This document shows positions 937 to 25,214 of a stretch of DNA of 64,000 bases, in pieces; position 1 is the first letter of the stretch, and each line of letters opens with the position of its first letter. A program made the position numbers and the translations under genes. Origin of the DNA: Armatimonadota bacterium (lineage in GTDB: Bacteria > Vulcanimicrobiota > JACPDS01 > JBDRKI01); NCBI GenBank assembly GCA_043814095.1, contig JBDRKI010000054.1:14666-78665 (forward strand). The letters are read 5' to 3'. The notes beneath the pieces were generated by a model. The model searched no databases, had not been told where the DNA came from, and worked only from the letters and a program-made list of their open reading frames with translations.

Positions 937-1821
937 TCAAGCTATTTCTTCCACCAGTTCGGCGGAAATGCCAGATAATACTAAATTCTGGCCCTTTAAA
1001 GCCTCTGAAAGCTCTTTCTCACTGCCTGATATTATGTCTTTTACCACTTTTGATGTGGTCTCAAATTTAGCCGAAACTTTGTTATCCTTTACTTCAAGTA
1101 TGACTTTTAACTGGCCCAGGTATTCCGGGTTCATCCTTATTACTATTTCTTTATCTTTCGCGCCGACGCTTCTTATAAGTATCCGGTCTATAACCTGCTT
1201 TATAACTTCTTCTCTTTTTAAGTCTTTGTTAATTTTAACTTTCTCAAAAACATTCATTTTCTCGGTGTCTTTTTCTTTTGATTCCATTGTTGAGGCGGAG
1301 GTCTTTATTCCTTTTTTCTCCCTTGCCAGTTTATCAAGAAACATTCCAAGCTGTGATTCATCATGCATCCTAATAAGTTTTTCAACTTCTTTTGAATTAA
1401 GGTCATTGATATTCAAACCGCGGGCAGAGAGCATATCTCTTAATTTCGCGGTATCTACTTTGCCTGTATCTAAATCTTTTATTCCTATCATCTGTTTTTC
1501 CGATATGCTTAATGCGTCGGGATTTTTTATTATGAGCTGGTATAGGTAATTTAAAAGAGATGAGAGCCCGAAATCGTTCTGCTGCATTGACTTTGCGAGC
1601 TTTTCAACCTTCTCCTGGTTTTCTTTTGCCTTGGACTCATCATGGATAAGCTTATCCGCCTGTTTCGTGTCTTTTTTTCCCGATGCATCTTCTGTCTTCT
1701 CTTTTAAAAGAGAAGAGAACTGTTTGTCGTCTTTTACCTGATTTTTCTCTTCAAACTTTATCTTGTTCTCGTTCTGCAGAGAAAAAAGTAAAGATGTAAT
1801 ATCGTTTCTGTTGTTATGCAT
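937..1821 (-). CDS. fliK: Flagellar hook-length control protein FliK-like
   Basis: C-terminal T3S4/Flg_hook motif IRMNPEYLGQLKVILEVKDNKVSAKF; position in the flagellar operon. Confidence 0.8.
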   Translation of the reverse strand: MHNNRNDITSLLFSLQNENKIKFEEKNQVKDDKQFSSLLKEKTEDASGKKDTKQADKLIHDESKAKENQEKVEKLAKSMQQNDFGLSSLLNYLYQLIIKNPDALSISEKQMIGIKDLDTGKVDTAKLRDMLSARGLNINDLNSKEVEKLIRMHDESQLGMFLDKLAREKKGIKTSASTMESKEKDTEKMNVFEKVKINKDLKREEVIKQVIDRILIRSVGAKDKEIVIRMNPEYLGQLKVILEVKDNKVSAKFETTSKVVKDIISGSEKELSEALKGQNLVLSGISAELVEEIA

Positions 1822-1847: not shown

Positions 1848-2426
1848 TTAACCCTGTTCGCTTTTAAATTTTTCGTAATACCCTATTACTTTGACAACAT
1901 AATTTCTTGTTTCGGAATAAGGCGGCACCCCGCCGTATCTTTTAACTGCGCCGGGTCCGGCGTTATAGCCGGCAACGGCCAGTTTAACATTCCCGTTAAA
2001 TCTTTCAAGAAGGCCTTTTAAATATCTTGTGCCTCCGAATATATTCTCCCTGGGATCATAAGCGTTTTTAACGCCCAGTGATTTGGCGGTTTCGGGCATA
2101 AGCTGCATTAAACCCATTGCCCCGCACCATGATCTCGCTGTCGGCTTAAAGTTGGATTCCTGTTTTATTACAGCCCTTATTAAAGCCGGATCAACCCCGT
2201 ACTCTTTTGATGCTTCGTTTATAATATCGGCAAAATCGCCGGAAACCTGAACGAATTCTTCTTTCTTTGCGACTCCTTCAATCTGGCTAACGCTGTTTAA
2301 TATAGATGAAAAATTAATGCCTGATGTGGGCACAACGGGCTTTGTTGTTTGTTCAAACCCGCCGAATTTGTTCTGTATGCCCTGAATCTTTGAGTTAATC
2401 TGCCTCATTCTTTCAAATATGCTCAT
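1848..2426 (-). CDS. Soluble lytic transglycosylase (SLT domain)
   Basis: [33 protein letters not shown] and ETRNYV motifs. Confidence 0.92.
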
Positions 2427-2890
2427 GATTCCTCCCTCTTTTCTTTCCTCGCGTATTTCATTGTAGCCAGCTCGTCTATAAACTTTCTTTCTTCCATGTC
2501 CGCTTCTTTATCAAATTCTTCTTTTTTCTTTTCTTTCAATCTTTCATAAGTCTTGCGCTCCTGCGCGGCTTTAATAAGTATCTCTCTCTGCTTTTCCGCG
2601 GCGCGCCTTGCGTCTTGGACGCATATTTTCTGGTGTTCTATCCTGTCTTCCAGTCTCTCAAGATGCAGTTGGTACATCTTAAGTTCATCTATGTCAAGAC
2701 CGCCCTTGCTTTTTTTCTTTTTTATATATTCAACGCTGTTTCTCTTGTCTTCCTCAAGCTTTCTCAGTTTTTCTTCTTCTTTTTCAAGCTTCCTGAAGCA
2801 GGCCGCGAGTTTTTCTTTTTCCTCGTCTTCTTTTTTCTTTTTCAGTATCAATATGTTTTCTAATTTAAATTTAAATTTCTTTGATTTCAT
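2423..2890 (-). CDS. fliJ: Flagellar export protein FliJ
   Basis: [11 protein letters not shown]-terminus, charged coiled coil, IDELA C-terminus, directly after fliI. Confidence 0.85.
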
Positions 2891-2934: not shown

Positions 2935-4266
2935 TTACCGATCCATTAAATCTATAAGTTTATCTATTGTTTCCTTATAGACACTGGGCTCTGCCTTTTT
3001 CTGGCATAAAAATTCATGCACGGACTTTATCATCTTCTTCGCGTAATCCACATCTGAGTTAGACCCGTCTTTATAGGCGCCTATATTTATAAGGTCTTCT
3101 TTTTCTTTATAAGTGGCAAGCACTTTCCGCAAGTCCCCTGCCGCGTCCTGGTGTTCATCCTGTGCAACTTCCGGGAAAAGCCTGCTCACACTCTCAAGAA
3201 CATCAATCGCCGGATACCTGTTCTGCGCCGCAATCCCTCTTGACAGTACGATATGGCCGTCAAGTATTGATCTTACCGTATCGGCAATGGGTTCGTTCAT
3301 GTCATCGCCTTCCACAAGCACCGTATATATCGCGGTTATGGATCCTTTTGTAGAAGTGCCGCTGCGTTCCAAAAGCTTAGGCAGAAGCGCGAACACGCTG
3401 GGCGTATAGCCACGCGTTGCAGGGGGCTCGCCCACGGCAAGTCCCACTTCACGCTGCGCCATGGCAAACCTTGTCACCGAATCCATCATAAACATCACGT
3501 CATAACCCTGATTCCTGAAGTATTCGGCTATCGCGGTTCCCACATAAGCGCCTTTCATCCTTACAAGAGCGGGCTGGTCGCTTGTGGCGCAGACCACTAC
3601 CGATCTTTTTAATCCTTCTTCTCCGAGATCCGTTTCTATAAAATCACGCAACTCTCTGCCGCGTTCCCCGACCAGCGCTATCACATTAACGCTTGCGGTT
3701 GTATTTCTCGCTATCATGCCAAGGAGCGTACTTTTTCCTACACCGCTTCCCGAGAAAATACCTATCCTCTGGCCTTTGCCGAAGGTAAGCAGTCCGTCTA
3801 TCGCCCTTACGCCGGTTGCTATAGGATCTTTTATCCTGGGCCTTGTTATGGGGTTGGGCGGTGAATTATATATGGGATATTCTTCTTCCGTTTCTATAGG
3901 GCCCTTGCCGTCAATGGGATTCCCCAGCCCGTCAATAACTCTTCCAAGAAGGCCTTTACCCACATTGACAAGAAGCGGCCTTCCGGTAGTGCGCACCTCG
4001 CACCCGGGACCTATGCCCGACATCTCGCCAAGGGGCATAAGAAGCACTTTATTATTCTTAAACCCCACGACTTCCGCGTGGATGGGTTTTTTGCCCTCTG
4101 TGGGGTAAACATTACAAAGATCCCCCACCCTTACTTCCGGGCCTTCTGATTCCACGATAAGGCCTATCACCTGGCTTACTTTGCCGTGTACTTTTATAAG
4201 TTTGGAACTGTGGAGGGCTTTATAATACTTGCTTAAATCAAGCTGTTTTTCATTCGGATTCTTCAT
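2935..4266 (-). CDS. fliI: Flagellar/T3SS export ATPase FliI (alternative TTG start at 4290)
   Basis: Walker A GSGVGKST, GERGRE, MDSVTRFAMAQRE and LDGHIVLSR. Confidence 0.95.
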   Translation of the reverse strand: MKNPNEKQLDLSKYYKALHSSKLIKVHGKVSQVIGLIVESEGPEVRVGDLCNVYPTEGKKPIHAEVVGFKNNKVLLMPLGEMSGIGPGCEVRTTGRPLLVNVGKGLLGRVIDGLGNPIDGKGPIETEEEYPIYNSPPNPITRPRIKDPIATGVRAIDGLLTFGKGQRIGIFSGSGVGKSTLLGMIARNTTASVNVIALVGERGRELRDFIETDLGEEGLKRSVVVCATSDQPALVRMKGAYVGTAIAEYFRNQGYDVMFMMDSVTRFAMAQREVGLAVGEPPATRGYTPSVFALLPKLLERSGTSTKGSITAIYTVLVEGDDMNEPIADTVRSILDGHIVLSRGIAAQNRYPAIDVLESVSRLFPEVAQDEHQDAAGDLRKVLATYKEKEDLINIGAYKDGSNSDVDYAKKMIKSVHEFLCQKKAEPSVYKETIDKLIDLMDR

Positions 4267-5080
4267 CGTAATTTTTGCTCGCTTCTTCAAAAGCTATCTC
4301 AAGTGCTTTTAACTGGGTTTCTATAGTGGCATCCACATTGCCCAGGTTAGTGCTTACCCTGCATCCCCCGCGCGTCATAGAAGGGTCTCCTTTTACGGTT
4401 AATATTTCAAGGTCCACCATGCCTGCGAAAATTTCTTTTCTTTCTTCCACTATTTTTTTATCTTCCGGGTTTACATAAACCGTTACTTGTTTTGTGCTTG
4501 ACCCTTTGGCAAGGTCAACTGCTTTGGTTGCCACGGCAAGAACAACTTCCGGATTTATTTTAATCTCTTCTTCCAGAATCTCCTTGACACAGGCAAGAGT
4601 AAGGTCTGCTATCTCCTGCTTTGCGTTCTCCATTATCAGGTTTCTTTCTTCTATAAGCTTATTAAATACGTCTTTAAGATTATCCGCAAGACCCGCAAGC
4701 TCCCTGCGGCCTTCGGCTTTTCCTTCTTCTATGCCCTGCTTCCTGCCTTCCCTCTGAGCTTCTTCAAAACGCTCATGCACAAGCAGCTTGGCAGAGTCAA
4801 TAATTCTTTTGGCTTCCTGCTTCGCGTTCGCGTAGAGCTGCGCGACTTTTACTTTCGCCTGCTCCATTATTTTCTGCGCGTCCTGGGTGGCCTGTTTCTC
4901 CGGGGTATGAACCTTTTTGGTTATCCCGTCAAGCTTCTCCTTAACCTGCTTTGTTTCTTCCGGGGTTACGGGAATCTTCGTAAACTCGGCTTTTTTAACA
5001 TCGATATCTTTTTTAATCGCGGACTTTTTCATATCATCCGGCTTTTCCGGTGTACCGCCCACGCCTTTAATAATTGACAC
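4250..5080 (-). CDS. fliH: Flagellar assembly protein FliH
   Basis: GxxxG repeats (EGRKQGIEEGKAEG), VYVNPED and GGCRVSTNLGNVDATIETQL. Confidence 0.9.
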   Translation of the reverse strand: MSIIKGVGGTPEKPDDMKKSAIKKDIDVKKAEFTKIPVTPEETKQVKEKLDGITKKVHTPEKQATQDAQKIMEQAKVKVAQLYANAKQEAKRIIDSAKLLVHERFEEAQREGRKQGIEEGKAEGRRELAGLADNLKDVFNKLIEERNLIMENAKQEIADLTLACVKEILEEEIKINPEVVLAVATKAVDLAKGSSTKQVTVYVNPEDKKIVEERKEIFAGMVDLEILTVKGDPSMTRGGCRVSTNLGNVDATIETQLKALEIAFEEASKNYDEESE

Positions 5081-5106: not shown

Positions 5107-6066
5107 CTATTTCACAAACCTTATCTTACCTAAGGCGACCAGCCCTCTTAATATATTTCTTATCTGCTGCTTCGCGGCTATAATCCTGTCATGGGAAACA
5201 CTCTCAAGACTCATGGCATCCCCGCGCAGGGCTTTGGCCGTATCAGGCGGCAGAACATTGTATATCCGTTCGGACAGAACAAGCGAAGAACCCTTAATTG
5301 CCATCGCTATGTCCTTAATATCCGCGAGTCTTAATACCTGCTTTAAAGAAGCTTCATCAACCTTTTCAATGTCTTCATACACGCAGAGATTTCCTTCAAT
5401 ATCATTCGCGAGCTTGGGCGCTTCTTTAACTATGCCTGATATAATCTTCTGTTCGGTATGCCTGTCCGTACCGCTTAATATATCCACCAAACGCTCTTTG
5501 CTTTCTTTAAAATCCGCTCTTCCTTCAACTATGTCTAGCACGCGTTCTTCCAGGACTTTTTCTATCTCCTCTAAAATATCCGGAGGTATTTTATCAATAT
5601 CGGCAAGCCTCTTTGCAACATCACTCTGTAATGAACCCGGAAGCTCCGCCAGAATAGACGAGGCTTTTGAAGAATCAAGCTGGGAAAGTATAACCGCTAT
5701 GGTCTGCGGGTGTTCTTTCCTTACCACCCTTGCCAGCTGAGCCGGGTCTATTTTGTATAAAAACCCCAGCGGCTTATTAATAGAAGAAGCTTCAAAAGCA
5801 GAATCTTGTGAAGCTCCCTGAGTAAACGGACTAGTAAAAGTAACTGTGCCTTCTTTTCCGACTTCCAGTATATTAGAGGTCTCCAAGAATTCGTTTAAAA
5901 TGCTTTCTTTTACTTCTTCCGGTATATTTTTTAGTTTGTTTAATTCTTCCTGTATCTCGCTCTGGGTTGTGCCCAGATCCTCCATGATTTGATTCGCAAC
6001 TTCAGGAGGCAGAGTTGTCAGCAATATAGCTGCTTTCTGTTTGGCCGTAAGATTATCCTTATTAAT
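5107..6066 (-). CDS. fliG: Flagellar C-ring protein FliG, atypical; probable ATT start at 6066 (ORF-track TTG start at 6024)
   Basis: In-frame NLTAKQKAAILL upstream of the TTG; EHPQTIA motif; C-domain aligns by eye without gaps to FliG-C; located between fliF and fliH. Confidence 0.85.
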   Translation of the reverse strand: MNKDNLTAKQKAAILLTTLPPEVANQIMEDLGTTQSEIQEELNKLKNIPEEVKESILNEFLETSNILEVGKEGTVTFTSPFTQGASQDSAFEASSINKPLGFLYKIDPAQLARVVRKEHPQTIAVILSQLDSSKASSILAELPGSLQSDVAKRLADIDKIPPDILEEIEKVLEERVLDIVEGRADFKESKERLVDILSGTDRHTEQKIISGIVKEAPKLANDIEGNLCVYEDIEKVDEASLKQVLRLADIKDIAMAIKGSSLVLSERIYNVLPPDTAKALRGDAMSLESVSHDRIIAAKQQIRNILRGLVALGKIRFVK

Positions 6067-6073
6067 TTTAAAT

Positions 6074-7675
6074 TCACCTCTCTCTATCGGCCAACCAGGT
6101 GCTCTTTAAAAGTTCAGCAACTCGAGTGGGTTTCTCCTTTGCCAGCATTTCTAACTTAAAAGCGGTACTTGTTCCTGTATTCTCGCGGTTCCCCGCATCT
6201 ATCTGTGTAGCTGAGGGTATGTTCTGGGTGTTAAACCTTACTTCGGGTATAACATTTCTCTGTCTCAGCATGAAGTATGCCGCTATTATTATCAGCATTA
6301 ACATCGGTGTTAAAGCAAGTGTCAGGAGCAGTGCGCTGTTTAACGCGGGATTCGCGCTTACCGGATTAGCGGGTACTTTGCCGCTTATCAGATTTTCTCT
6401 CATATTCTGGAATAAAGCAGATGAGAAAGGTATGCTTACAACAGCTACTTTATCTCCTCTTGCTTCATCTATGCCGATAGCGCCTGCCACTAATTCTTTA
6501 ATATTGCCTGCTTCGCTCGGCTGGAGGTTGTCCACCGCTACGCTTGCCGTTATTCTCTTAATTTCCCCGGCGGCCGTTACAGTTCTTTTTGTAACTTTAT
6601 CTACAGCGTATGTAGACTTATCGGACTTCTTCACATATTGACCTTGAGATCCTTTTAAGTCTGTTGCTCCTCCTATCTGAGTAGCATCTTTGGCTTCGGG
6701 CATATTGGAGAACGATTCCTCGGAAGTATCTTCCTTGGCTTTTACCGTGCCCTCTACATTGGCGGGACCGCCGTATGTTTCTGATGTCATATCGCTCTGT
6801 GAGTTATCAAACTCAACATTTAAAGCTACGGTATATTTGTTGGGGTCCAGCACGCCGTTTAATGCTTCTCTTACTTTTTCCTTGAGTCTATTCTCGTAGG
6901 CGATCGCTTTCTCCTCCCCAACCGGCTGCATTGCCATGCCTTCTTTGCCGAGGTATTTTGTGTCAACGGCGTAAGGAACGCCGTCCATTCCTATAATCTT
7001 AACGTTTTCCACCGGCAGGTTGCGTACTGAGTTTGCCACAAAGTGGGCAATACCTGCAACCTGAGCGGGATTTAATCTTTCATAACCGGGCTGGAGTTTT
7101 ACCATAACCGCGGCTGTTGCCTGATTATCATTTCCGAAAAGTACTTCTTTAGGGGTAGTGATTTTAACTATGGCGTCCGCGACACCCTGTATCTCTCTTA
7201 TGCCGTATATAAGCTGGGCTTCCAGTTTTTCTTTATTGTTCTGCTCCAGTTCCTGAGGAGACTGGGGCATAAAACCCTCTTTTGGCGCGGATATCGCAAC
7301 AGGAGTCCTGGGCAGGCCGTATAAAGCAAGGTCCATCCTGGCTTTATTTAACTGCCCGGGAGAAACTAAAATAGTTCTTCCCGTAGTATCAATCTCATAA
7401 GAGATTTTCATTGTCCCCAGTTTATCCGCTATAGCCTTAACGTCATTGGGGTTAAGCTCGGAATAAAGAGGAACAAAAGTGTTGACTTTAATAAATACAT
7501 TGATAATTAAAGCCAATGCTATAATCCCCACTATCACCGAGGTGCCTATGAGTTTCTGTTTCGGCGTAAGCGACTTGAGTTTATCAAGCAGCCCTCCGAA
7601 AAAGGAACCCGCGCCCTGAGGACCCTGGGTGGGCAGTCCGCCCGTTCTTAAATTTGTTTTGATATTAGTAGCCAT
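6074..7675 (-). CDS. fliF: Flagellar M-ring protein FliF
   Basis: Two TM segments, PLYSEL, ATAAVMVKL, AIGIDEARGDKVAV and C-terminal VAELLKSTWL. Confidence 0.9.
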   Translation of the reverse strand: MATNIKTNLRTGGLPTQGPQGAGSFFGGLLDKLKSLTPKQKLIGTSVIVGIIALALIINVFIKVNTFVPLYSELNPNDVKAIADKLGTMKISYEIDTTGRTILVSPGQLNKARMDLALYGLPRTPVAISAPKEGFMPQSPQELEQNNKEKLEAQLIYGIREIQGVADAIVKITTPKEVLFGNDNQATAAVMVKLQPGYERLNPAQVAGIAHFVANSVRNLPVENVKIIGMDGVPYAVDTKYLGKEGMAMQPVGEEKAIAYENRLKEKVREALNGVLDPNKYTVALNVEFDNSQSDMTSETYGGPANVEGTVKAKEDTSEESFSNMPEAKDATQIGGATDLKGSQGQYVKKSDKSTYAVDKVTKRTVTAAGEIKRITASVAVDNLQPSEAGNIKELVAGAIGIDEARGDKVAVVSIPFSSALFQNMRENLISGKVPANPVSANPALNSALLLTLALTPMLMLIIIAAYFMLRQRNVIPEVRFNTQNIPSATQIDAGNRENTGTSTAFKLEMLAKEKPTRVAELLKSTWLADRER

Positions 7676-7707: not shown

Positions 7708-8025
7708 TTATATCTGCATCTGCATCAGCGTTTTGAAATCCATCGCCAATGAGCTCATGACTTTCGTTGCCAGTTTTAAAAGCACATCTGCTTTCGCGTT
7801 TTCAATTGAAATTCTATGCAGATTGTCAATATCTCCCGTAGCAAGATCTCCCGCCAGTTTGTCGGGAGCCGCAACGGCTTCCGTTACTTTGGATAATTCA
7901 TTCGTTAAGAATGATGCAAAACTGCCTTCTCCCGAAGCAACGGGACTCGTTGAATTCTGTGTAAAGATACTCGAAAAATCGCCTAACGGCTGTATCGGTT
8001 GTATCGGTAAAAACGGACTACTCAT
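7708..8025 (-). CDS. fliE: Flagellar hook-basal body protein FliE
   Basis: SFASFL...LATGDIDNLH...LMQMQI C-terminus; between flgC and fliF. Confidence 0.85.
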   Translation of the reverse strand: MSSPFLPIQPIQPLGDFSSIFTQNSTSPVASGEGSFASFLTNELSKVTEAVAAPDKLAGDLATGDIDNLHRISIENAKADVLLKLATKVMSSLAMDFKTLMQMQI

Positions 8026-8040
8026 ATTAAATCCCCCTCC

Positions 8041-8496
8041 TTACGCGTTTCTTCCTATATCTAACGCTCTCATTGCCATATATTTTGTAGCGTCAACAAC
8101 GGCGGCATTTGCTTCATAAGCTCTGCTTGCCGTTATGAGGTTTGTCATTTCTTCTATTATATTAATGCTGCTTTTCGCAACATACCCTTTCCACTTGCCT
8201 TCTGTTATCGCAAGCGGGTTGTCGGGATCATATACATATTTAGTTTCTGAATCTACTTCCGTAATACCTGCAACTTCGACGCCCGAACCGGATGAAAGAC
8301 CGGAGCCCATGGATGCCTGCACGAAAGGAGGCAGGAACTGCGCGAAAGTCGGGGCCCCTTCAGGCCTTATAATCGCAACCTGCTTCTTGCTTCCGGGAAC
8401 ATTGCCGTGAGCTATATTGTGGCTTATAACATCCATCTGGGTCTGGGCCACATTCATTCCCTGTGCCGCTGCGTCAAATGATTTAAATATACCCAT
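8041..8496 (-). CDS. flgC: Flagellar basal-body rod protein FlgC
   Basis: ISHNIAH, YVYDPDNPLA, GYV and EEMTNLITASRAYEAN...ALDIGR. Confidence 0.9.
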   Translation of the reverse strand: MGIFKSFDAAAQGMNVAQTQMDVISHNIAHGNVPGSKKQVAIIRPEGAPTFAQFLPPFVQASMGSGLSSGSGVEVAGITEVDSETKYVYDPDNPLAITEGKWKGYVAKSSINIIEEMTNLITASRAYEANAAVVDATKYMAMRALDIGRNA

Positions 8497-8517: not shown

Positions 8518-8910
8518 TTAACCCTGGAACATGCTAAGTACGGTATTTAATCTAGAAAACATTTTTCCAATACCCTGTGAAACTATAGTCTGGTACCATA
8601 TCTGGTTCTTCGCGAGATTTGACATCTCTGTATTAATATTAACTTTACCGCCTGTGGAGTAAACGGCCGGCTGGATGCTTGCCAGATCATTGAGAATCAT
8701 TCCTCCGTTATATGAGGCAAGCTGGCAGCCGTTATTGTTTTCCGCCTGCGCGATATAATCTTTCATAATATCTTCAAACGCAACCGCGCGTGAAGTATAA
8801 TTAGGCGTATTAATGTTAGCAATGTTATTTGATATAACATCATTGCGCAGGCTTGCCGCGTCCAGCGCTTTTGTTAATATTTCCAGATTCATGTTGCTGA
8901 AAAGATCCAT
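8518..8910 (-). CDS. flgB: Flagellar basal-body rod protein FlgB
   Basis: KALDAASLRNDVISNNIANINTPNY and VNINTEMSNLAKNQIWY; ATG at 8910 has SD AAGGTGGTG. Confidence 0.9.
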   Translation of the reverse strand: MDLFSNMNLEILTKALDAASLRNDVISNNIANINTPNYTSRAVAFEDIMKDYIAQAENNNGCQLASYNGGMILNDLASIQPAVYSTGGKVNINTEMSNLAKNQIWYQTIVSQGIGKMFSRLNTVLSMFQG

Positions 8911-9010
8911 AATTTTTACACCACCTTTTGTACTTTTATAGTACAAACATATATGTAATAATACACAACTTTTACCCCTCCCGAGAGAGGTGTTCTTTTC
9001 TTCTGTCTAT

Positions 9011-9191: not shown

Positions 9192-10433
9192 TTACGCTTT
9201 TGGTTTTATAACGGCAAAAGCGCAGTTTTCCATGTCAATGTACTTATCCGCGATCTCGCGTATATGCCTCGGCGTGATCTTATTCACGGCCGCAGAAAAC
9301 TCACAAGAGTAATTAAAACCCCTCCCTACCAGTTCATGGTAGGCGTAATCCGACGCCTTACTGGCCTTTCTCTGCTCCTGAATACTTTTAAGACCCAGCA
9401 GGTATCTTTTGTAAGTTTCAAGTTCCTTATTTGTTAATTCTTTGTATTTTAATTTATTTAACTCCTGAATAAGAATTGATTCGGCAAGCTCAAGCTTATC
9501 GGGGCTTGTTCCCAGAAAAACTTTAAAAACTCCCGTATCCAGATACGCTTCATAATCGGCATCCACCATATACGCAAGCCCGTAATTGTCCCTGAGCTCT
9601 ATAAAAAGCCTTGAGCTCATGCCGGACAAAAGATGCTCCAGAACTTCAAATGCCGGATAATCATCGCTGTTTATGTCCGGCGCGAAAAATCCCAGGCACA
9701 TAACAACCTGCTTTTTATCCCTTTCAATAATGACCTGCCTCTTGCCTATCGGAAGTTCGGCGAACGGTGATGCCGGCCTTTCCACGTTTCTTAATTTTGT
9801 CATTTTTAATTTCTCAACTATATGCTCTTCAACATACTCAGTCTTAAAATCGCCCACTATACTTATAACAAGGTTGTCGGGGCTGTAAAAATTTTTATGC
9901 CAGTTAACCAGGTTTCTCCTGTTAATTCTGGCAACCGATTCAAATGAACCCGAGATAAGCATGCTGTAGGGATGGTTCTGGAATAAGGCTTTATCGCATT
10001 CATCTTTGCAGAATTCGGTAACGTTATCCATGCTGTTGTATATATTCGCCAGAATAATTTTGCGCGTTTTCTCTATCTCGTCCTGCTTAAAGGCGGGAGA
10101 CGCGACAACATCAAGAAATATATCAAATCCTTCAATAAAATTTCTTGACAGAATATTCATTGAAAGCCCCATGGAATCTTTACTGGTAAACGGCTCTATG
10201 TCCGCGCCTAAAAACTCCAGGTCTTTTGAAAGTTTTATATTGTTTCTTCCGTTTGTGCCCTTAAGCAGCATTTCCTGGCAGAAATGCGACACCCCCGCGT
10301 TATTAAAAGTCTCGTATCTTGTACCGCCGTTAGCGTACAAAGAAACCGAAATAATCGGGGAAGAATGATCTTCCGTTAAAATCAGCCTTATGCCGTTCGG
10401 GAGCTTGCGTTTTTTAACAACTGTTTTCTGCAT
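9192..10433 (-). CDS. M16 (pitrilysin/MPP-like) peptidase, probably the non-catalytic subunit
   Basis: LPNGIRLIL start; HxxEH is degenerate (HFCQEM); SSRLFIELRDNYGLAY. Confidence 0.85.
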   Translation of the reverse strand: MQKTVVKKRKLPNGIRLILTEDHSSPIISVSLYANGGTRYETFNNAGVSHFCQEMLLKGTNGRNNIKLSKDLEFLGADIEPFTSKDSMGLSMNILSRNFIEGFDIFLDVVASPAFKQDEIEKTRKIILANIYNSMDNVTEFCKDECDKALFQNHPYSMLISGSFESVARINRRNLVNWHKNFYSPDNLVISIVGDFKTEYVEEHIVEKLKMTKLRNVERPASPFAELPIGKRQVIIERDKKQVVMCLGFFAPDINSDDYPAFEVLEHLLSGMSSRLFIELRDNYGLAYMVDADYEAYLDTGVFKVFLGTSPDKLELAESILIQELNKLKYKELTNKELETYKRYLLGLKSIQEQRKASKASDYAYHELVGRGFNYSCEFSAAVNKITPRHIREIADKYIDMENCAFAVIKPKA

Positions 10434-10455
10434 TTACAAACCCTTAATGTTTTTT

Positions 10456-11715
10456 TTACTTGGGCAGATATACCGCGACAGAGCAGTTCTCCCTGTTCAG
10501 GTAATCCTGAGCCACTTTGCGCATGTCTTTTGCTTCTACTTCCAGCATTCTTTTCGGGAACTCCTCGGAAAGCATACAGTCGCCGGCTATCTCGTAATAA
10601 CCTATGTTCTCGGACTGCTCCTCAACCGCTTCCTGGGAAAAAATATAGTCGCTTAAAAAAAGATTCTTGGCTTTCTTTAATTCCTGGTTCGGTATAAGCT
10701 TATATTTTACTTTATCAATTTCTTTAAATATTTCTTCTACGGCTTTTTTAACGTCTTCTTTATCAAGGTTGGCTTCTATTAAAAAGAGCCCCGGATAATT
10801 ACCCGATAAAATCCCGGTATAAATATAGTTAACAAGCATCTTTTTTTCTTTCAGAACCACATTAAGGCGCGAGCTTAATCCTTCCCCCATGGCGACAGCG
10901 AGAAGGTCAAGAGCGTATATGTCCCTGTGCAGGAGGGTGGGTATATGGAACGCCATCATAAGGTAAGCTTTTTTAACGTCCCCTGTATATTCTTTGTACC
11001 TGAATCCTGCCTGGCGGGGTTCGTCGGCGTCAAATAAGTTTACCGATAACGGAACATTTTTAAGCCCCCCGTATAAATTGGTTACTGATTTTATAACTTC
11101 TTCGCTTTTTATGTCCCCCACTGCCGTTATTACTATGTTATTCGGAACATATTTTTCCGTATAATATTTTTTTAAAGTGTTTTTATCTATCTTGTTCAGA
11201 ATATCTTCGTATCCCAGTATTGAATGCCTTAAAGGATGTTTTTTATACGCTTCTTCCAGCAGCTTGTCAAACAGGAAATTAGAGGGCGAATCCATGCCCA
11301 TTTTTATCTCTTCTAAAATAACTTTTCTTTCTTTTTCTATGTCGTAATCATCAAAAATGGGATTTAAGACCGCGTCTGTCTGTATGTCCAGGGCCACGTC
11401 AAAATACTTGCTCGGGACAACAACCCAGTAGTTGGTAAACGTATAAGAAGTTGATCCGTTAAGATAGCCGCCCAGGGCGTTTATCTGGCGCGATATCTCG
11501 CCAAGCCCTCTTTTGGGAGTTCTTTTAAAAAGCATATGTTCTACAAAATGGGAAATCCCCTTAAGATCTTCCGGCTCGTCAATTGAACCTGATCTTATCC
11601 ATACCCCGAAACAGGCAACCTTGGCCGGATATATTTCTTTTGTGATAATTGTTACCCCGTTGGGCAGCTGCATCCTTATAATATCCGATGTCAGGTAAGC
11701 TTTTTCTAAAAACAT
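10456..11715 (-). CDS. M16 zinc peptidase, catalytic subunit
   Basis: GISHFVEHMLF (HxxEH), LNGST, ERKVILEE and SSRL. Confidence 0.9.
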   Translation of the reverse strand: MFLEKAYLTSDIIRMQLPNGVTIITKEIYPAKVACFGVWIRSGSIDEPEDLKGISHFVEHMLFKRTPKRGLGEISRQINALGGYLNGSTSYTFTNYWVVVPSKYFDVALDIQTDAVLNPIFDDYDIEKERKVILEEIKMGMDSPSNFLFDKLLEEAYKKHPLRHSILGYEDILNKIDKNTLKKYYTEKYVPNNIVITAVGDIKSEEVIKSVTNLYGGLKNVPLSVNLFDADEPRQAGFRYKEYTGDVKKAYLMMAFHIPTLLHRDIYALDLLAVAMGEGLSSRLNVVLKEKKMLVNYIYTGILSGNYPGLFLIEANLDKEDVKKAVEEIFKEIDKVKYKLIPNQELKKAKNLFLSDYIFSQEAVEEQSENIGYYEIAGDCMLSEEFPKRMLEVEAKDMRKVAQDYLNRENCSVAVYLPK

Positions 11716-11835: not shown

Positions 11836-12903
11836 ATGCTCTCTACTATTAAAACATATATAAATAAACTATTCAACAGGGAATATATACGTAAATTTAA
11901 AAGTATTTTTGTTAAAAGATTCATATTCTTTTATATTATTTTTATTATTTTACTTATTTATTTAATTTCTTTAAGTCTGAATTACATAAAAAGCTTTAAT
12001 TTTGAAGCAGGAAAAGAAAGATATATACTACTCTTTAACAAAGTGCCCAGTTCAATATTAATATTAAACGACAAAAACCCCGCGCCAAGATATGTATTTA
12101 CAAACTCCCCCGGTGTTATAATTAATAATTCCTTCTCCGGCAAAACTTATTTTCTCTCTGAAGACGGGCATATATATTCCATTGACCTTAAAAATGAAAG
12201 ATTCCCGTCAACTTACATGCTGAATTTCAACCCCGCCAGTGGTGTTTTCACTTCCCCGGCGACTTTATATATATCAAATAAAAATGAACCCTTTATATAC
12301 CATTATTCCATGCTTAAAAGAAAAGTCATAGACCGGCTTAAATTTAAAAATTCCCAGTCTTATTTCGCTACCGATCAAAATAATAAAAAAGTTGTATCTT
12401 ATGAAGAAAAAGATAAAAGTTTAAATATTGTTAATGTACGCTATAACGAATTTATAAAAAACATACCTTTGAATAAGGATATTATAAAAATGCTGCCGTC
12501 CGGTTATTCTCAAAAGTTATACATTTTAACTCCCGGCAGCGGTTTTATAATCTTCAACATAGACTCTATGGCTGTTGAAAAGAAGTTTAATATAGGAACA
12601 AACATTGTTGACTTTGACACAGGTAAAGGCAGGCAGTCCGGTGATCTGATATTCGCAATAGATAAAAGCGAGAATAAATTATATATTTTAAAATCTAATA
12701 AAATCATTAAAGAACACATACTGGGCAAACAAAATCCATCCCTTATATCATTAAGCCCCGAAGGATACTGCGTTTATATATATTACGGCGGGACAAATGA
12801 AGTAGAAAAGATTAACCTGAAAAATTCAAGAGTGTTAAAAACTTACAAGCTTAATCCCATAAAGCCTTCACAGCTTATGGTTCTTCCGGCGGATGAAAAT
12901 TAA
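11836..12903 (+). CDS. Membrane-anchored YVTN/beta-propeller-like protein
   Basis: N-terminal TM, then blade-like repeats (e.g. ISLSPEGYCVYIYYGGTNEVEKINL); ATG 11836 preferred over the upstream TTG because the promoter motif lies at 11800. Confidence 0.55.
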   Translation: MLSTIKTYINKLFNREYIRKFKSIFVKRFIFFYIIFIILLIYLISLSLNYIKSFNFEAGKERYILLFNKVPSSILILNDKNPAPRYVFTNSPGVIINNSFSGKTYFLSEDGHIYSIDLKNERFPSTYMLNFNPASGVFTSPATLYISNKNEPFIYHYSMLKRKVIDRLKFKNSQSYFATDQNNKKVVSYEEKDKSLNIVNVRYNEFIKNIPLNKDIIKMLPSGYSQKLYILTPGSGFIIFNIDSMAVEKKFNIGTNIVDFDTGKGRQSGDLIFAIDKSENKLYILKSNKIIKEHILGKQNPSLISLSPEGYCVYIYYGGTNEVEKINLKNSRVLKTYKLNPIKPSQLMVLPADEN

Positions 12904-14021
12904 TAAACATTCTGCCAGGTTACTGCCTCAACCGAACCGGTTGAACTGCTCCCCAATAAACTTGCAAGATTGGCATCGTAAATTACCTGCGCGGTACCTC
13001 CGGTAGTCACTATAAATCCTATAGCCGCCCCGTGAAGGTCGCTCGTCCCCCTGAAATCAACAGTTGCGCTGGGAAGATAAACTCCGAAAAAAGAGTTTGA
13101 TCCTCCTTGTATATTAGCCGCAACACAGCCTGTTGTGCCGTAAAAAATACACTGGGTAGCGTCCTGAGAAGTATTTGATACGCTCAGTCCTGTTAATTTT
13201 AAATTCCCGTTAACGTATATATAAACAGGGCCTGAAGCTATGGCAATTTTTCCCTTGCTCTGTAAATCAATACTTGTAAACGAATAAGTGCCTGCGGTAA
13301 GCGTTACCGTGTCTCCCTCGCTCCCGCCGCCGGATAACGATATAGAACCGTATTTGCCGGGCGAAAGAGTGCATGTTGTAGAAATATTTTCGCCGCTCGG
13401 TGAGGAAGCCAGAGGATCTTCAACTAAAGGTTTTGCTTCTCCCGCGTTGGTTTTTGTTTCACCCGTGACGGTTGAAGAACCGTCTACCGTTAAAGAAGTC
13501 GTGTTCGTGCCTATATCGCCTACGACATCGCTGGTACCGCCTATAGATATGCTGTTATACCCGAAAAGAGCGTAATTCCACGGAGGGGTTAAACTGGAGA
13601 TATCTGTCTTTATCATCGCGCCTATTCTGTTTATTCTGCCGCCGCACTTGCCGGTGCCGATTACATAAGCGCATCCGGCCGGAACAACCACGCCGTCTGC
13701 TCTTGTAACAGCCGCTGAACCAAGCAAGTTATTGGTAGAATCATAAGCGCCTGTCCCGAATGTAATTGTGTATGTGGCACTGACCTCGGATAAAGCCGCA
13801 TTATTAAAACCTGTAGTCCATGCGGGGTTTGAATTTAAACTATCCATAGCATTTGCGATGCCCGCTTTTGCCGCATAGCCGGCAATTACGGTATCCCTGT
13901 AGCCGCTTACGGTTCTTAAGTTAAATATACCTATTGAGCCTACTGATACGGCAATTACGATTAAGATTAACAGTATAAGAAGGCCTACAACAAGAGCTAT
14001 GCCTTTTTGATTCTTTTTCAT
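12900..14021 (-). CDS. PilX-like type IV minor pilin with large C-terminal beta-rich domain, paralog 2
   Basis: Class III signal KKNQKG|IALVV lacking Glu5; AGYAAKAGIANA PilX motif. Confidence 0.75.
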   Translation of the reverse strand: MKKNQKGIALVVGLLILLILIVIAVSVGSIGIFNLRTVSGYRDTVIAGYAAKAGIANAMDSLNSNPAWTTGFNNAALSEVSATYTITFGTGAYDSTNNLLGSAAVTRADGVVVPAGCAYVIGTGKCGGRINRIGAMIKTDISSLTPPWNYALFGYNSISIGGTSDVVGDIGTNTTSLTVDGSSTVTGETKTNAGEAKPLVEDPLASSPSGENISTTCTLSPGKYGSISLSGGGSEGDTVTLTAGTYSFTSIDLQSKGKIAIASGPVYIYVNGNLKLTGLSVSNTSQDATQCIFYGTTGCVAANIQGGSNSFFGVYLPSATVDFRGTSDLHGAAIGFIVTTGGTAQVIYDANLASLLGSSSTGSVEAVTWQNVY

Positions 14022-14037
14022 AAATTATCCTTCTGTC

Positions 14038-15165
14038 CTAATATATATTCTGCCAGGTTATTACATCAAGATAACTGCTGCCGCCGCTTACTAAAGTAGC
14101 AAGATTGGAATCATAAATTATCTGAGCGGTACCGCCGGCCGCCGCGGTCTGGCCTACGGCAGATCCGTGAAGGTCGCTCGTCCCCCTGAAATCAACAGCA
14201 GCGCCGGGCGTGTAAATTCCGAAATATGCGTCCGCTCCTCCGCGGACATCTACCGAGGTGCAGCTGGTCGTGCCGTAAAACAGGCACTGTGTGGCGTCAT
14301 GAGATGTGTTTGTCACGCTCTGACCGGTTAATTTTAAATCGCCGTTAACGTATATATAAACAGGGCCTGAAGCTATTGCAATTTTTCCCTTGCTCTGTAA
14401 ATCAATACTTGTAAACGAATATGTGCCGGCGCTGAGTGTTACTGTTTTACCGGAAGAACCGCCGCCTGATAAAGATATTGAACCGTACTTTCCGGGAGGA
14501 ATACTGCAGGTACTGGTAACATCTCCTCCGCTTGGAGAAGAAGCCAAAGGATCTGTAACCGCGGGCTGGGCTTGATCCGCATTTGTATCCGTGCCGCCGC
14601 TTACCGTAGAAGCTCCGCCGACGCTTAAAGAAGTGGTATTTGTCCCTATATCGCCGACGACATCGCATGTGCCGCCGACAGAAACGCTGTTATACCCGAA
14701 AAGAGCGTAAAGCCAGGGAATACCGCCGCCGCTCGAGTTCATAGACATAACCGCGACCCTGCGAACAACCCCGTTGCAGTCGCCCGTACCTATTATATAA
14801 GCATGGGCGGCCGGAACGGTTATTCCGTCACTTCTTGTAACGGATGTTGAGCCGTTTAAATTGTTTGTGGAATCATATACCCCTGAACCGAAAGAGACGC
14901 TGTAAGTCGCGTTAGCGCTGGACAGAGAAACACTGCTGAAACCGGTTGTCCACGAAGAGTCCGAATGCATAGCGTCTAATGCCTGAGCTATCCCTGCTTT
15001 CGCGGCGTAATAAGCAACCGTAGAATCCCTGTGGTAGCTTACCGCTTTTAAATTGTATACGCCTATAGATCCTATTGATACAACAAGAACAACTAAAATC
15101 AATAGGAGCAGTAATGTAACCGCCAGCGCGATACCTTTCTGTTTTCTTCTTTTATACTTTTCCAT
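14038..15165 (-). CDS. PilX-like type IV minor pilin, paralog 1
   Basis: RRKQKG|IALAV; AYYAAKAGIAQA; collinear with 12900..14021. Confidence 0.75.
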   Translation of the reverse strand: MEKYKRRKQKGIALAVTLLLLLILVVLVVSIGSIGVYNLKAVSYHRDSTVAYYAAKAGIAQALDAMHSDSSWTTGFSSVSLSSANATYSVSFGSGVYDSTNNLNGSTSVTRSDGITVPAAHAYIIGTGDCNGVVRRVAVMSMNSSGGGIPWLYALFGYNSVSVGGTCDVVGDIGTNTTSLSVGGASTVSGGTDTNADQAQPAVTDPLASSPSGGDVTSTCSIPPGKYGSISLSGGGSSGKTVTLSAGTYSFTSIDLQSKGKIAIASGPVYIYVNGDLKLTGQSVTNTSHDATQCLFYGTTSCTSVDVRGGADAYFGIYTPGAAVDFRGTSDLHGSAVGQTAAAGGTAQIIYDSNLATLVSGGSSYLDVITWQNIY

Positions 15166-15220
15166 AACAGCATATTCTTTCTAAAAACATATAAAATAAA
15201 GTTAAAGATTGAGAACATAT

Positions 15221-15886
15221 TTAATTAAGCACATCAACACTGCTTACCGTAGTCATGGTGTTTTCTTTGCCGATTGATTCGTCTTCGGCCGTAACACTTA
15301 TATAAACCGGGTTGTCTGACGGAGTTCCATAACTTTTGATTGAACCATCCATCCAGTATAAATCAAAATCGCTTATATCATTAGCTATAACTTTATGAGA
15401 TAAACCCGACCCGCCTCCGGTTGCAAAATAGCTTGTAGTGTAAGTGGAAGAACTGTATGGAGCGCTCGCCGGGGTAACCGCTATTTCTTTTCTGTATATC
15501 ATGTTTTTAGCGGGGTTTTCCGGGTCCGCATACATATAATAACATATAAACTTCTGCCAGTAAGGCTGGCCTTCATATCCTGAGGTAGAATTATATTCTA
15601 CGGTATTATCGGTTTTCCTGGGAGACATAAACACAACGCCTTTAGGTGATGAACTGTAAAGAATAACCGAGTCCAGACTGGATTCAAAAAGCTCCCTGGA
15701 AAGCTGGTTAATGGCGTTAAGGGATGCCTGCTGGACCCATATATTTGATTTCGTGACATGGTAATATTTAATTGACGCGTTAAACACCATGTAAATGCCG
15801 GTAAACACAAGACCGAATAAAGCCGCGTACACCAGCATCTCAACAATAGTCGCGCCTTTTCTTTTTTTATTCTTCTCTTGCAACAT
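15221..15886 (-). CDS. PilW-like type IV minor pilin
   Basis: KKRKG|ATIVEMLV prepilin signal with Glu5; LSREL motif. Confidence 0.75.
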   Translation of the reverse strand: MLQEKNKKRKGATIVEMLVYAALFGLVFTGIYMVFNASIKYYHVTKSNIWVQQASLNAINQLSRELFESSLDSVILYSSSPKGVVFMSPRKTDNTVEYNSTSGYEGQPYWQKFICYYMYADPENPAKNMIYRKEIAVTPASAPYSSSTYTTSYFATGGGSGLSHKVIANDISDFDLYWMDGSIKSYGTPSDNPVYISVTAEDESIGKENTMTTVSSVDVLN

Positions 15887-16283
15887 CCGTCTCAATTTTC
15901 ACATACCTCTCGGGCCTGCTTGTCACGTAAACAATGACCACTATATTTTTTGTGGTAGCGGATACTACCGCCGCCTGAGTGTCAGGAGTAAAAGTAACGC
16001 TGTAAGTAAACTCTGTCGTGGTATTCGCGTCATTCACTATGCTTGTTAAAGTAGCTGTCCCTGAAGCTAAGCTCAAGCCGTAATCGTCAAAATCATTATA
16101 TATCGCCTGCTCCATCTTCTGCTGTGCCACGTGCGTCGCGAATAACATATCCTTGCCGTGCTTTACGCTTTTCATGCTAACGGGAAATACACCTAAAATC
16201 ATAAGGAAACCCACTGCCAGAATGGCAAGAGCTATCATAAGTTCAATTAAAGACGCTCCCTTTTTATTTTCATTCTTTCCCAT
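15867..16283 (-). CDS. PilV-like type IV minor pilin
   Basis: NKKG|ASLIELMIALAILAVG prepilin signal; AQQKME motif. Confidence 0.8.
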   Translation of the reverse strand: MGKNENKKGASLIELMIALAILAVGFLMILGVFPVSMKSVKHGKDMLFATHVAQQKMEQAIYNDFDDYGLSLASGTATLTSIVNDANTTTEFTYSVTFTPDTQAAVVSATTKNIVVIVYVTSRPERYVKIETDVAREE

Positions 16284-23663: not shown

Positions 23664-25214
23664 TTACTCCTTACTCTTAGCTCGGCGCGGGCAAGGTTTG
23701 TCCCCGTCCCCGCACGGATGCCCGCATTCGGTAAAGGTGCTTTCCTCTGACTTATCTGTTTTAATTTCCTTATTTTTATCAAGATAGTTCCTTATCGCAT
23801 TATGCAGGGCGTCAGTGCCCAGGTTGGAGCAGTGCATCTTCTGCGGGGGAAGCCCTCCCAGGGCTTTCGCTATTTCATCTTTTGTTATCTTAAGAGCTTC
23901 TTCTATTGTTTTTCCTATTGCCATCTCCGAAACTATTGAAGAGACGGCAATAGCGGCGCCGCAATTATGCACCGCAAATCCTTTCACAAGATATGTATTT
24001 GGTTCAAAAGCAACCTGAAAATTATATACTTTCCCAAAGTAGGATTTTGTATCAATTTTTTTAACAGGAACTAAAAAATAACTATCCTTTGAATGAACAA
24101 ACCTATGCTTCCTGTCTAATTTAAATGATATTAAAAATTGGTGCGAATCGGATAATTTTCTTCCTTCTATAACACAGTTCTTCTTCCAAATTTCCCTTAT
24201 TGAAGCAAAAATTTTTCCCCTCGCAAGAATTTGCTGCATCTGCATCGCTAAAATTTCGGATGTAGTAGTAACTCTATAAGTCTCGCTGTCCGTGCCCCTT
24301 CTTTTATATTTATCTCCGTCTCCAAGCAAATAAGTTTTAAACATTTCCCATTGTTTTGCAAACGGCAAATAAAGAACATCTCGCGATAATTTTTTGGCTT
24401 TGGCATATTTTCCGCAATGTTCAATTAAAAAATCTGCCAATTTTCTGCTACATACATAGACTTCAGAAACATTGTTTCGTATGCGTTCTTGGGCTTTCTT
24501 TTTTGTACAATAAAATATTAGATTCTTTGTTTCATTTATCAATTTTTTTTCTGTTTTATTAAACGAAAAACATACTACACTATTATTTGCACTCATATAT
24601 CCTTCTGACAAATAATAACCCAAAAGCCGCATTAGTTTTAAATCAAAAGATTTAATATCTTTAGTTTGGATATTATAGCCATAAATCAAATAATCTCCTT
24701 TTTCTACATCCTTTGCCGGAATAAAATCAGGTTTTTGCAATAATAGATTCTTATGTTTTACTCTTAACCATTTACATTTTTTACTGGAATAACGAGCCCC
24801 CTTCACCCATTCTCTTTTAATGCACAATACGGGATGATTTGCAGTTAGAGAAAATGCGTTATAAGGTGAAACAAAAGGCAACATTCTAAGTAACTTGCCT
24901 TTAAATTTGCTTTCATAAGTTTCCGCAACAAATGTAGTTTTTCCCAAAGAATTGATAACTTTGTCGCCCTTTTCTATCTTATTTATCTGCTGCAAGCCGA
25001 CTGGATTTGTTATCACCTTTTCCGATGCCGGAAGACATCCGAAGGTTTTAAATTTCACGTCATCAAGCTTACCGTCTTTTACTTTTATGTAAAATGTCAT
25101 TATATCCCCGCACTGGGGATTCCCTACTTCACCCACGCCGTCCGCGCCGGGTATTTCCCCCACATTTCTGGGGTTCTGGAAATGATCCATAACTTTATCC
25201 GAATAAAAAGACAT
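23664..25214 (-). CDS. iscU: Fe-S cluster scaffold IscU/NifU-N interrupted by an intein
   Basis: Exteins YSDKVMDHFQNPRNVG..GNPQCGD..KFKTFG / CGAAIAVSS..LPPQKMHCSNL give a 158-aa spliced product. Confidence 0.93.
   Translation of the reverse strand: MSFYSDKVMDHFQNPRNVGEIPGADGVGEVGNPQCGDIMTFYIKVKDGKLDDVKFKTFGCLPASEKVITNPVGLQQINKIEKGDKVINSLGKTTFVAETYESKFKGKLLRMLPFVSPYNAFSLTANHPVLCIKREWVKGARYSSKKCKWLRVKHKNLLLQKPDFIPAKDVEKGDYLIYGYNIQTKDIKSFDLKLMRLLGYYLSEGYMSANNSVVCFSFNKTEKKLINETKNLIFYCTKKKAQERIRNNVSEVYVCSRKLADFLIEHCGKYAKAKKLSRDVLYLPFAKQWEMFKTYLLGDGDKYKRRGTDSETYRVTTTSEILAMQMQQILARGKIFASIREIWKKNCVIEGRKLSDSHQFLISFKLDRKHRFVHSKDSYFLVPVKKIDTKSYFGKVYNFQVAFEPNTYLVKGFAVHNCGAAIAVSSIVSEMAIGKTIEEALKITKDEIAKALGGLPPQKMHCSNLGTDALHNAIRNYLDKNKEIKTDKSEESTFTECGHPCGDGDKPCPRRAKSKE
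23964..25037 (-). mobile_element. Intein with LAGLIDADG homing endonuclease (358 aa)
   Basis: Block A CLPASEKV, block B TANHP, block C LLGYYLSEG, block E YLLGDG, block F VYNFQV, block G FAVHN|C. Confidence 0.93.

Follow-up and report, generated by a model that had tools for sequence, protein, structure and literature searches.

All Buchnera lineages lack fliC, motA and motB, and their basal bodies are thought, in the account of PMC8109811, to have been repurposed as type III exporters. Abby and Rocha (2012; PMC3459982) have argued that injectisomes derive from a flagellum which lost its motility. In a survey of flagellar gene loss, rotor proteins without filaments were found in 11% of the non-motile species and an alternative function was raised for them; its passages on these species do not mention the Eremiobacterota (PMC12199754). 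No conserved, selectable system has so far been tied to such filament-less rotor proteins. Within the flagellar motor, FliG binds FliF by its N-terminal domain and FliM by its middle domain, and its C-terminal domain meets MotA by charged residues, as summarised in PMC7693769 (citing Lloyd and Blair 1997). We analysed a stretch of 64,000 nucleotides (nt) from contig JBDRKI010000054.1 of a member of the Vulcanimicrobiota (= Eremiobacterota), hereafter the window. It encodes a FliG homologue, whose C-terminal domain lies at positions 5107..5400 of the reverse strand. This fliG gene is part of a 19-gene flagellar cassette which, together with a second locus in the same genome, likely encodes an old basal body or type III export apparatus that derives from a flagellum, does not rotate and has been maintained by selection. 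The gene content, the missing motility parts, the clade-wide changes in FliG and the purifying selection were observed directly, and that the machine exports and does not rotate is the most likely reading of the gene content.

An earlier note on this DNA had favoured a non-rotary flagellum-derived apparatus and had named as further options an extra FliG paralogue of the FliG1 type or a co-evolved stator with compensating charges. It had pointed to a second fliG, motA/motB, flagellin, fliD and flgK as the genes to look for, a canonical fliG with motAB and flagellin elsewhere in the genome being what would speak against its reading. The source genome (G000) is 98.97% complete in 129 contigs, with the flagellar operon unbroken on one contig of 78.7 kb, and no such set was found in it. 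One FliG_C match lies over the cut-off, which is the sole fliG, and profile searches gave 0 matches to MotA_ExbB, MotB_plug and Flagellin_N and none to MotA_N or FliS (the stator profiles applied were PF01618, PF13677 and PF20560). The favoured reading is thus supported. The paralogue option fails because this is the only FliG of the genome, and the co-evolved stator fails for this genome, in which no stator was found.

The absences were followed further by tblastn, with queries from the ordinary flagellar genes of G014, a relative that has both the cassette and an ordinary flagellar operon. Every core gene was found in the source genome, and nothing was found there for the two flagellins, FliJ, FliK, FlgD, FlbD, MotA and MotB or for the genes after flhA (FlhF/G). 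Five genomes that carry only the cassette were inspected closely (G000, G003, G010, G034 and G049). FlgI, FlgD, FlgH and FliD_C were each absent from all five, and the Flg_bbr_C matches in them were just FlgC, FlgF, FlgG and the hook-like protein, with no FlgK among them; fliD and flgK, two of the genes named in the earlier note, were thus not found in them either. All five encode Omp85 and therefore have an outer membrane. Genes for methyl-accepting chemotaxis proteins are also present in 5/5 (in four over the family cut-off), with two of them on contig C70. The N-terminal LSQxxIDALL motif by which FliM binds CheY-P (as described in PMC7693769) is absent from the FliM of the source genome and from nine other cassette FliMs; the ordinary FliM of G014 carries ILSQEQIDALV. 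A MotA_ExbB match near the rod locus of G034 was considered as a stator and ruled out, as it is paired with ExbD. As a separate observation, the source genome encodes Omp85/BamA without any gene of the MotA/ExbB/TolQ family, and the same holds for G003; such cells would be diderms without TolQ or ExbB.

Contacts between the FliG C-domain and MotA are known down to individual charged residues, which are numbered here after E. coli K-12 FliG (NC_000913.3, b1939). On alignment to that protein, two of the five charged torque-helix residues are kept in the window FliG, namely K264 (codon 5295-5293) and D289 (5220-5218). The other three are replaced: R281 by D (5244-5242), D288 by G (5223-5221) and R297 by S (5196-5194). 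LCVY takes the place of the MFLF hinge and KESKE that of the Gly-Gly linker. The FliF-binding N-terminus and the EHPQ motif that contacts FliM both appear to be kept, as EHPQ(T) is retained and the N-terminal LTAKQKAAILL aligns with E. coli and with the related FliGs described below. All of these features had been called by eye in the earlier note, and each of the calls held on alignment to the real E. coli protein.

The protein is recognised by Pfam as FliG_M (6e-28), FliG_C (5e-21) and FliG_N (3.2e-12), and its top solved relative is the middle-plus-C fragment of Thermotoga maritima FliG, 1lkv (E 1.5e-38), with the C-domain aligned without gaps. Against the NCBIfam fliG equivalog TIGR00207 it scored 169.3 bits, under the cut-off of 226.7. 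An AlphaFold2 model built with 120 homologues had a mean predicted local distance difference test (pLDDT) score of 76, which rose to 85-94 over the middle domain and the C-domain. The top Foldseek matches of the model were FliG structures only, and its C-domain superposed on 1qc7 with a TM score of 0.85-0.90 and a root-mean-square deviation of 1.2-1.3 A, so the FliG fold is predicted to be intact. The gene is longer than its listed open reading frame (ORF), which has 305 codons (5107..6024, reverse strand) and a TTG start at 6024 and is too short. The frame stays open 5' of this TTG and encodes the conserved FliG start ...KINKDNLTAKQKAAILL, with no ATG, GTG or TTG in this 5' stretch. The true start is probably the ATT at 6066, which lies behind the Shine-Dalgarno-like GAGAGGTGA and 8 nt past the fliF stop (6076-6074). 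One public gene call, P0001, begins fliG at ATA 6087.

The changes in FliG are not peculiar to this genome. Among the 120 closest proteins of 5.8 billion, position 281 was acidic in all 120 (E in 86, D in 34), 264 was K or R, 289 was D or E, 288 was variable and 297 was P or S in 114; the hinge consensus of these homologues was mostly LCDF. We compared 111 FliGs in total. Of these, the 34 of the divergent type were all acidic at 281 (D or E), with DGK[ED] where other FliGs have GG. Position 281 was R throughout (17/17 and 60/60, together 77/77 outside the clade) both in 17 ordinary FliGs from this phylum, which have GG and MFxF, and in 60 FliGs from other phyla and E. coli, which have GG. The alignment across relatives that the earlier note had suggested thus gave a clade-wide substitution at 281. 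In a separate metagenome sample, position 281 was acidic in 12/12 clade members and R in 68/68 others. R297 is not diagnostic, as P stands there in 7/17 ordinary FliGs of the phylum. The C-terminal helix is invariant in the clade. The next best matches, at <= 35% identity, were ordinary FliGs; they come from Bacillota, Fibrobacterota, Spirochaetota and Desulfovibrionaceae.

The divergent FliGs were monophyletic (SH-aLRT 100), with a stem length of 1.44 substitutions per site, in a quick LG+G4 tree that had long branches flagged. In this tree the clade and ordinary Eremiobacterota FliG were joined in an open polytomy. Members of the clade cluster by genome family, consistent with vertical descent. 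The branch of the source genome's FliG is long, at 1.43 substitutions per site, and a metagenome scan gave no sequence with more than 50% identity to it. The ratio of non-synonymous to synonymous substitution rates (dN/dS) was calculated for 12 pairs of clade members from outside the source genome's own sub-lineage (66-72% identical proteins). Five pairs with saturated dS in the gene or the C-domain were left out, and in pairs with dS <= 1.5 the ratio was 0.013-0.07 for fliG and 0-0.05 for its last 110 codons, the C-domain. Clade FliG is under strong purifying selection. Given these low ratios the C-domain is conserved and not abandoned, and by its sequence it appears re-specified and not left to decay. 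The earlier note had spoken of lost torque residues; the substitutions stand, and plain loss does not, since the clade, which is under purifying selection, is fixed for an acidic residue at position 281 and for a changed linker. What had looked like a quirk of one gene is in this wider reading a selected system of a whole clade.

Record titles within the clade read Candidatus Xenobia, UBP9, Candidatus Bruticola or Vulcanimicrobiota, and a few records are evidently mislabelled. Several are metagenome-assembled genomes (MAGs) from rumen and gut, and others come from soil and groundwater. Among the ordinary FliGs, the K-R-E-D-R pattern was observed in those of many MAGs titled Fibrobacteria or Fibrobacter. 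Cultured Fibrobacter is not known to be motile.

Distribution was surveyed in 151 sampled genomes of the phylum with profiles for FliG_C, Flagellin_N, MotA_N, MotB_plug and FliS. The FliG_C scores fell into two classes, 110-144 and 66-100 bits, with the source genome at 66. Position 281 was D or E in all 14 low-class loci that were fetched and R in all 17 of the high class. The high class was present in 47/151 genomes, 18 of which also had the low class, and the low class alone in 43/151. No Flagellin_N, MotA_N or FliS match over the cut-off was found in 41 of these 43 (G012 had a sub-threshold FliS match of 20.5 bits). MotB_plug was absent in 38 of the 41, and the remaining three, all of genus g19 (G022, G027 and G031), scored 27-29 bits. 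In the two of these that were checked, G027 and G022, the match was rejected as a stator. It is ZorB beside ZorA of a Zorya defence system; in G027 (L202, 4368-9307) the protein scored 195 bits against ZorB1 and lies next to a ZorA of 1382 amino acids with a long coiled-coil tail, and the same pair occurs in G022. Flagellin, MotB, MotA_N and FliS thus track the ordinary type of FliG rather than the divergent type. One genome, G076, has an ordinary FliG, MotB and FliS and no flagellin match.

In about 14 families almost all genomes carry the cassette (for example 16/16 in f19, 16/19 in f5, 5/5 in f10 and 5/5 in f18), the genomes being 2-9 Mb in size. Each of the 18 dual-system genomes has a separate ordinary FliG with R281 beside its own motAB, and for this reason motile-type relatives with the same substitutions do not refute a non-rotary cassette. 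One genome with an ordinary flagellar set, G078, holds a lone frame of 139 amino acids that matches FliG_C only (C2:3693890-3694168, 86 bits).

The cassette has the order flgB-flgC-fliE-fliF-fliG-fliH-fliI-fliJ-SLT-fliK-flgE-like-fliM-fliN-fliO-fliP-fliQ-fliR-flhB-flhA, and all 19 ORFs are intact in the source genome. The genes from fliM to flhA lie left of the window on the same contig and were identified by Pfam. The FlgE/F/G-family axial protein, the C-terminal end of which lies beyond the left edge of the window, occupies the flgE slot of ordinary operons. FlhA (792.9 vs 772.1 bits), FliP (275.1 vs 217.45) and FlhB (377.4 vs 349.25) score over their NCBIfam flagellar equivalog cut-offs, as do FliI and FliF. 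FliM (196.7 vs 219.6), FlgF (162.8 vs 178.5) and FlgG (170.1 vs 252.75) fall under theirs. FlhB retains NPTH, and the FliI P-loop GSGVGKST is intact in the translation, although a stricter Walker A pattern gave no match. Judged by these features the export core looks functional, and the export machine is conserved as such; rotor, switch and distal rod have diverged from their families. The best NCBIfam match of the lytic transglycosylase (SLT) was the flagellar assembly lytic transglycosylase (109.9 bits, under the cut-off), and it is probably the wall-cutting partner of rod assembly.

Features of the cassette in the window, with the basis of each assignment
Feature	Position in window	Strand	Basis
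flgB, proximal rod, first gene of the operon	8518..8946	-	Pfam Flg_bb_rod 1.8e-08
flgC, proximal rod	8041..8496	-	Pfam Flg_bbr_C 2.3e-12
fliE	7708..8025	-	Pfam FliE 2.1e-12
fliF, MS ring	6074..7675	-	Pfam YscJ_FliF 4.8e-37; NCBIfam fliF 152 bits > 129.75
fliG, clade-specific divergent form	5107..6069	-	Pfam FliG_N/M/C; 1lkv; AlphaFold2 model
EHPQ motif of FliG middle domain, kept	5704..5715	-	alignment to E. coli K-12 FliG
KESKE in place of Gly-Gly linker	5494..5508	-	alignment to E. coli K-12 FliG
LCVY hinge in place of MFxF	5377..5388	-	alignment to E. coli K-12 FliG
FliG torque-helix region	5194..5295	-	alignment to E. coli K-12 FliG
fliH	4250..5080	-	Pfam FliH 3.9e-24
fliI, export ATPase	2935..4290	-	Pfam ATP-synt_ab 2.1e-91; NCBIfam FliI_clade2 675.2 > 629.8
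fliJ	2423..2890	-	Pfam FliJ 1e-19
Lytic transglycosylase (SLT)	1848..2426	-	Pfam SLT 1.6e-31
fliK-like, hook-length control/substrate switch	937..1821	-	Pfam Flg_hook 9.1e-13
FlgE/F/G-family axial protein, 273 amino acids	2..739	-	Pfam LlgE_F_G_D1; NCBIfam FlgEFG_subfam 142.9 > 70.25

Synteny was determined at 12 loci from other families, four of which are cut by contig or window ends. The gene order was identical and motAB were lacking in 12/12, over at least ten families; FliO fell below the tblastn threshold in four of the 12. The second locus, on contig C55 of the source genome, encodes a FliK-like protein of 496 amino acids, a FlhB-C-like protein of 96, FlgF, FlgG, an FlgJ-type rod-binding protein and a tetratricopeptide repeat (TPR) protein, and it was found again in G003, G010, G034 and G049. 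Two of these, G010 and G034, have a sigma-70-family gene (regions 2, 3 and 4; about 266 amino acids, the size of FliA) directly after flgF-flgG and the rod-binding gene. A FliA-like sigma factor was also sought in the source genome, where the only tblastn match was RpoD, encoded next to dnaG and with regions 1.1 to 4. The second locus is flanked by HD-GYP-type (HD_5) genes in G000, G010 and G034, and the window holds a further one (56901-58169); they may hint at cyclic-di-GMP control. The metzincin, the 950-residue and the 130-residue proteins encoded downstream of flhA were considered as cargo and rejected, as the 12 other loci hold no equivalents of them. In G065 (C41:9213-11054) a pair of divergent-type FliG_C matches is separated by 1.5 kb, possibly a tandem duplication of fliG within the cassette.

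The two loci together would build the export gate, the ATPase complex, the MS ring, the C ring, a full rod and a short hook-like tip. They supply no stator, filament, junction proteins, caps, L/P rings or CheY docking site, and since stator, filament and docking site are missing the machine is likely not rotating. With no member of a known stator family in the genome there would be nothing known to turn the ring, and without junction, filament and cap proteins and FliS nothing known to be turned. FliG may have been kept as an adaptor that holds the C ring, and via FliN and FliH the FliI ATPase, on the MS ring at the gate. At minimum the machine would export its own rod, hook-like and FliK proteins. 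Since this Omp85 diderm has no L/P rings, the axial structure probably stops beneath the outer membrane.

Several points count against a non-rotary exporter. The torque helix, with its conserved acidic residue, and the invariant C-terminal helix are conserved beyond what a pure adaptor role would explain. This excess keeps a further FliG-C partner, so far not recognised, in play, and such a partner, possibly a force generator, would fit the conservation of the C-domain as well. The calls of absence hinge on the sensitivity of the profiles, and MotA_N missed several genomes that carry MotB. The whole case is built on MAG sequences, and no cargo or outer-membrane conduit was identified among the genes examined. 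Two genomes, G020 (67% complete) and G030 (89%), have only the low-class FliG, yet encode flagellin and MotAB; this may reflect an ordinary fliG that was not assembled, as three congeners of G030 carry both systems.

An alternative reading is a machine that still rotates, in which a stator of an unrecognised family complements the reversed charge at 281 and a filament of an unrecognised protein is turned, for example a polymer of the hook-like protein. The high conservation of the torque helix and C-domain within the clade agrees with this, as does the charge at 281, which is cleanly reversed and not drifted, and the retained FliK ruler and FlhB NPTH switch hint at an ordered export programme. 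We nevertheless regard rotation as unlikely. G000 and G003 have no gene of the MotA/ExbB/TolQ family and the copy in G034 is paired with ExbD; the MotB_plug matches of genus g19 are ZorB beside ZorA in the two of three genomes checked; and the 19-gene cassette holds no candidate membrane pair. Hook cap, junction proteins, filament cap and FliS are lacking too, and FliM is without its CheY docking site. It is quite unlikely, though compatible with an export apparatus and not opposed to it, that the structure serves as a regulatory or checkpoint device, in which completion of the rod and hook-like part releases a secreted inhibitor and switches on a regulon in the manner of FlgM/FliA. The FliA-sized sigma factor gene after the rod-binding gene in G010 and G034, and the HD-GYP-type genes around the second locus in three genomes, suggest such a role. 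The source genome, however, has RpoD and not that sigma factor, and no FlgM-like gene turned up, in analyses that included no search aimed at FlgM.

Ongoing decay of a flagellum that is being lost is very improbable. It would account for the long branch of the source genome's FliG (1.43 substitutions per site) and for the larger losses in this genome than in its relatives (D288G, the glycine-free linker, and the FliA-like sigma factor that is present in G010 and G034 and was not found here). It does not agree with 19 intact ORFs, a gene order kept across at least ten families, export core proteins over strict equivalog cut-offs, a clade dN/dS of 0.013-0.07 and a cassette that is near-universal in about 14 families. 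Barely credible is an artefact of assembly or binning, even though the MAG is in 129 contigs and flagellin genes are often multi-copy and poorly assembled. Apart from the completeness of 98.97%, motAB, flgD and flbD are missing from inside a contiguous operon, just where the ordinary operon has them, and the same pattern recurs in 41 independent genomes, some of them in 20-40 contigs. Weighed together, the evidence favours a non-rotary export apparatus that has been maintained by selection.

Additionally, the surroundings of the operon were inspected. A pair of M16 peptidase genes lies directly upstream of flgB (9192-11715, reverse strand), and M16 is found at that place again only in G034. 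Near the flagellar operon there is also a type IV pilin-like cluster (12900-16283, reverse strand) with PilX_N, two DUF7305 and N_methyl, and type IV pili may be the actual means of movement of the cell. The cultured Vulcanimicrobium alpinus is described as having no flagella and no flagellin and as moving by type IV pili (PMC9758169). If G011 resembles it, this species falls among the members of the phylum that lack the cassette. Elsewhere in the window, a NifU-like protein of 516 amino acids (23664-25214, reverse strand) has LAGLIDADG_3 between two NifU_N stretches and looks like an intein-interrupted NifU/IscU. In contig C27 of the source genome (L201, 11090-12571) an ORF of 493 amino acids gave weak matches to the ATLF and Peptidase_M90 metallopeptidases; it is unrelated to the FliG finding.

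A flagellum-derived basal body without motility is a kind of structure already known, and what is new here is a clade-wide, selectively maintained variant of it. TXSScan was run on Ca. Eudoremicrobiaceae by Paoli et al., and their passages on it report no such system (PMC9259500); in our own literature search, mostly outside subscription journals, no description of the cassette was found. As a defined gene set in dozens of genomes, with the dual-system genomes as an internal control, the cassette makes several questions testable, among them what use a C ring has when it is not turned, which features of FliG serve assembly and which torque, and how a flagellum is converted into another machine.

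One comparison is with the ordinary operon, of the type of Bacillota and Spirochaetota and of the Eremiobacterota themselves. The cassette shares with it the flgB-to-flhA order and the three-domain fold of FliG. It differs in that flgD, flbD, motA, motB and fliL are lacking between fliK and fliM, and so are all the genes that ordinarily come after flhA; in G014 the stretch from flgE to fliM of the ordinary operon holds additional genes, motAB (MotB_plug) among them. The cassette FliG has a reversed charge at R281 and a changed sequence at the GG linker and at the MFxF hinge, and FliM is without the CheY-binding N-terminus. Spirochaete FliG1 is an extra copy beside the working flagellar FliG2. 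It resembles the cassette FliG in differing from the canonical motor FliG, but the latter is the only FliG of the source genome and is accompanied by a complete set of basal-body genes of its own.

The closest analogue among known systems is the basal body of Buchnera, which, as far as it is described in PMC8109811, has in common with the cassette that export gate, MS ring and C ring including FliG, FliM and FliN, and rod are kept. Buchnera keeps FlgD, FlgE and FlgK and is enriched for FlgH and FlgI, whereas FlgD, FlgH, FlgI and FlgK were not found in the cassette genomes inspected. The Buchnera set is a shrinking remnant of an enterobacterial flagellum, the only one of the cell, in an endosymbiont genome of 0.6 Mb, in contrast to the cassette genomes of 2-9 Mb. 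Unlike it, the cassette is syntenic over many families, is under purifying selection and stands beside an ordinary flagellar set in 18/151 genomes. An old clade with a stem of 1.44 that coexists with the ordinary set is not a recent reduction of its host's only flagellum.

The chances are about even, in our judgement, that the cassette is a third, independent branch of flagellum-derived machines. Such a branch would be largely vertical in descent, near-universal in the Xenobia-type families and, in some genomes, parallel to a true flagellum. It would have given up rotation, filament and chemotactic control and kept the C ring and full rod, and its FliG C-domain would have been re-specified for a new partner or role by an acidic 281, a rigidified linker and an invariant C-terminal helix. 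With the injectisome it would share the nature of a flagellum-derived export machine without motility. It is unlike the injectisome in keeping FliG, FliE, FlgB, FlgC, FlgF and FlgG, and its FlhA scores 792.9 bits as the flagellar protein vs 612.5 as SctV. Secretin, needle and translocon genes were not found among the cassette genes, a comparison that included no genome-wide search for secretins. If the reading is true, the cassette is a living example of the stage, motility lost and export kept, that has been proposed for the origin of injectisomes, and it would represent a departure from the flagellum that is independent of the injectisome and less remodelled.

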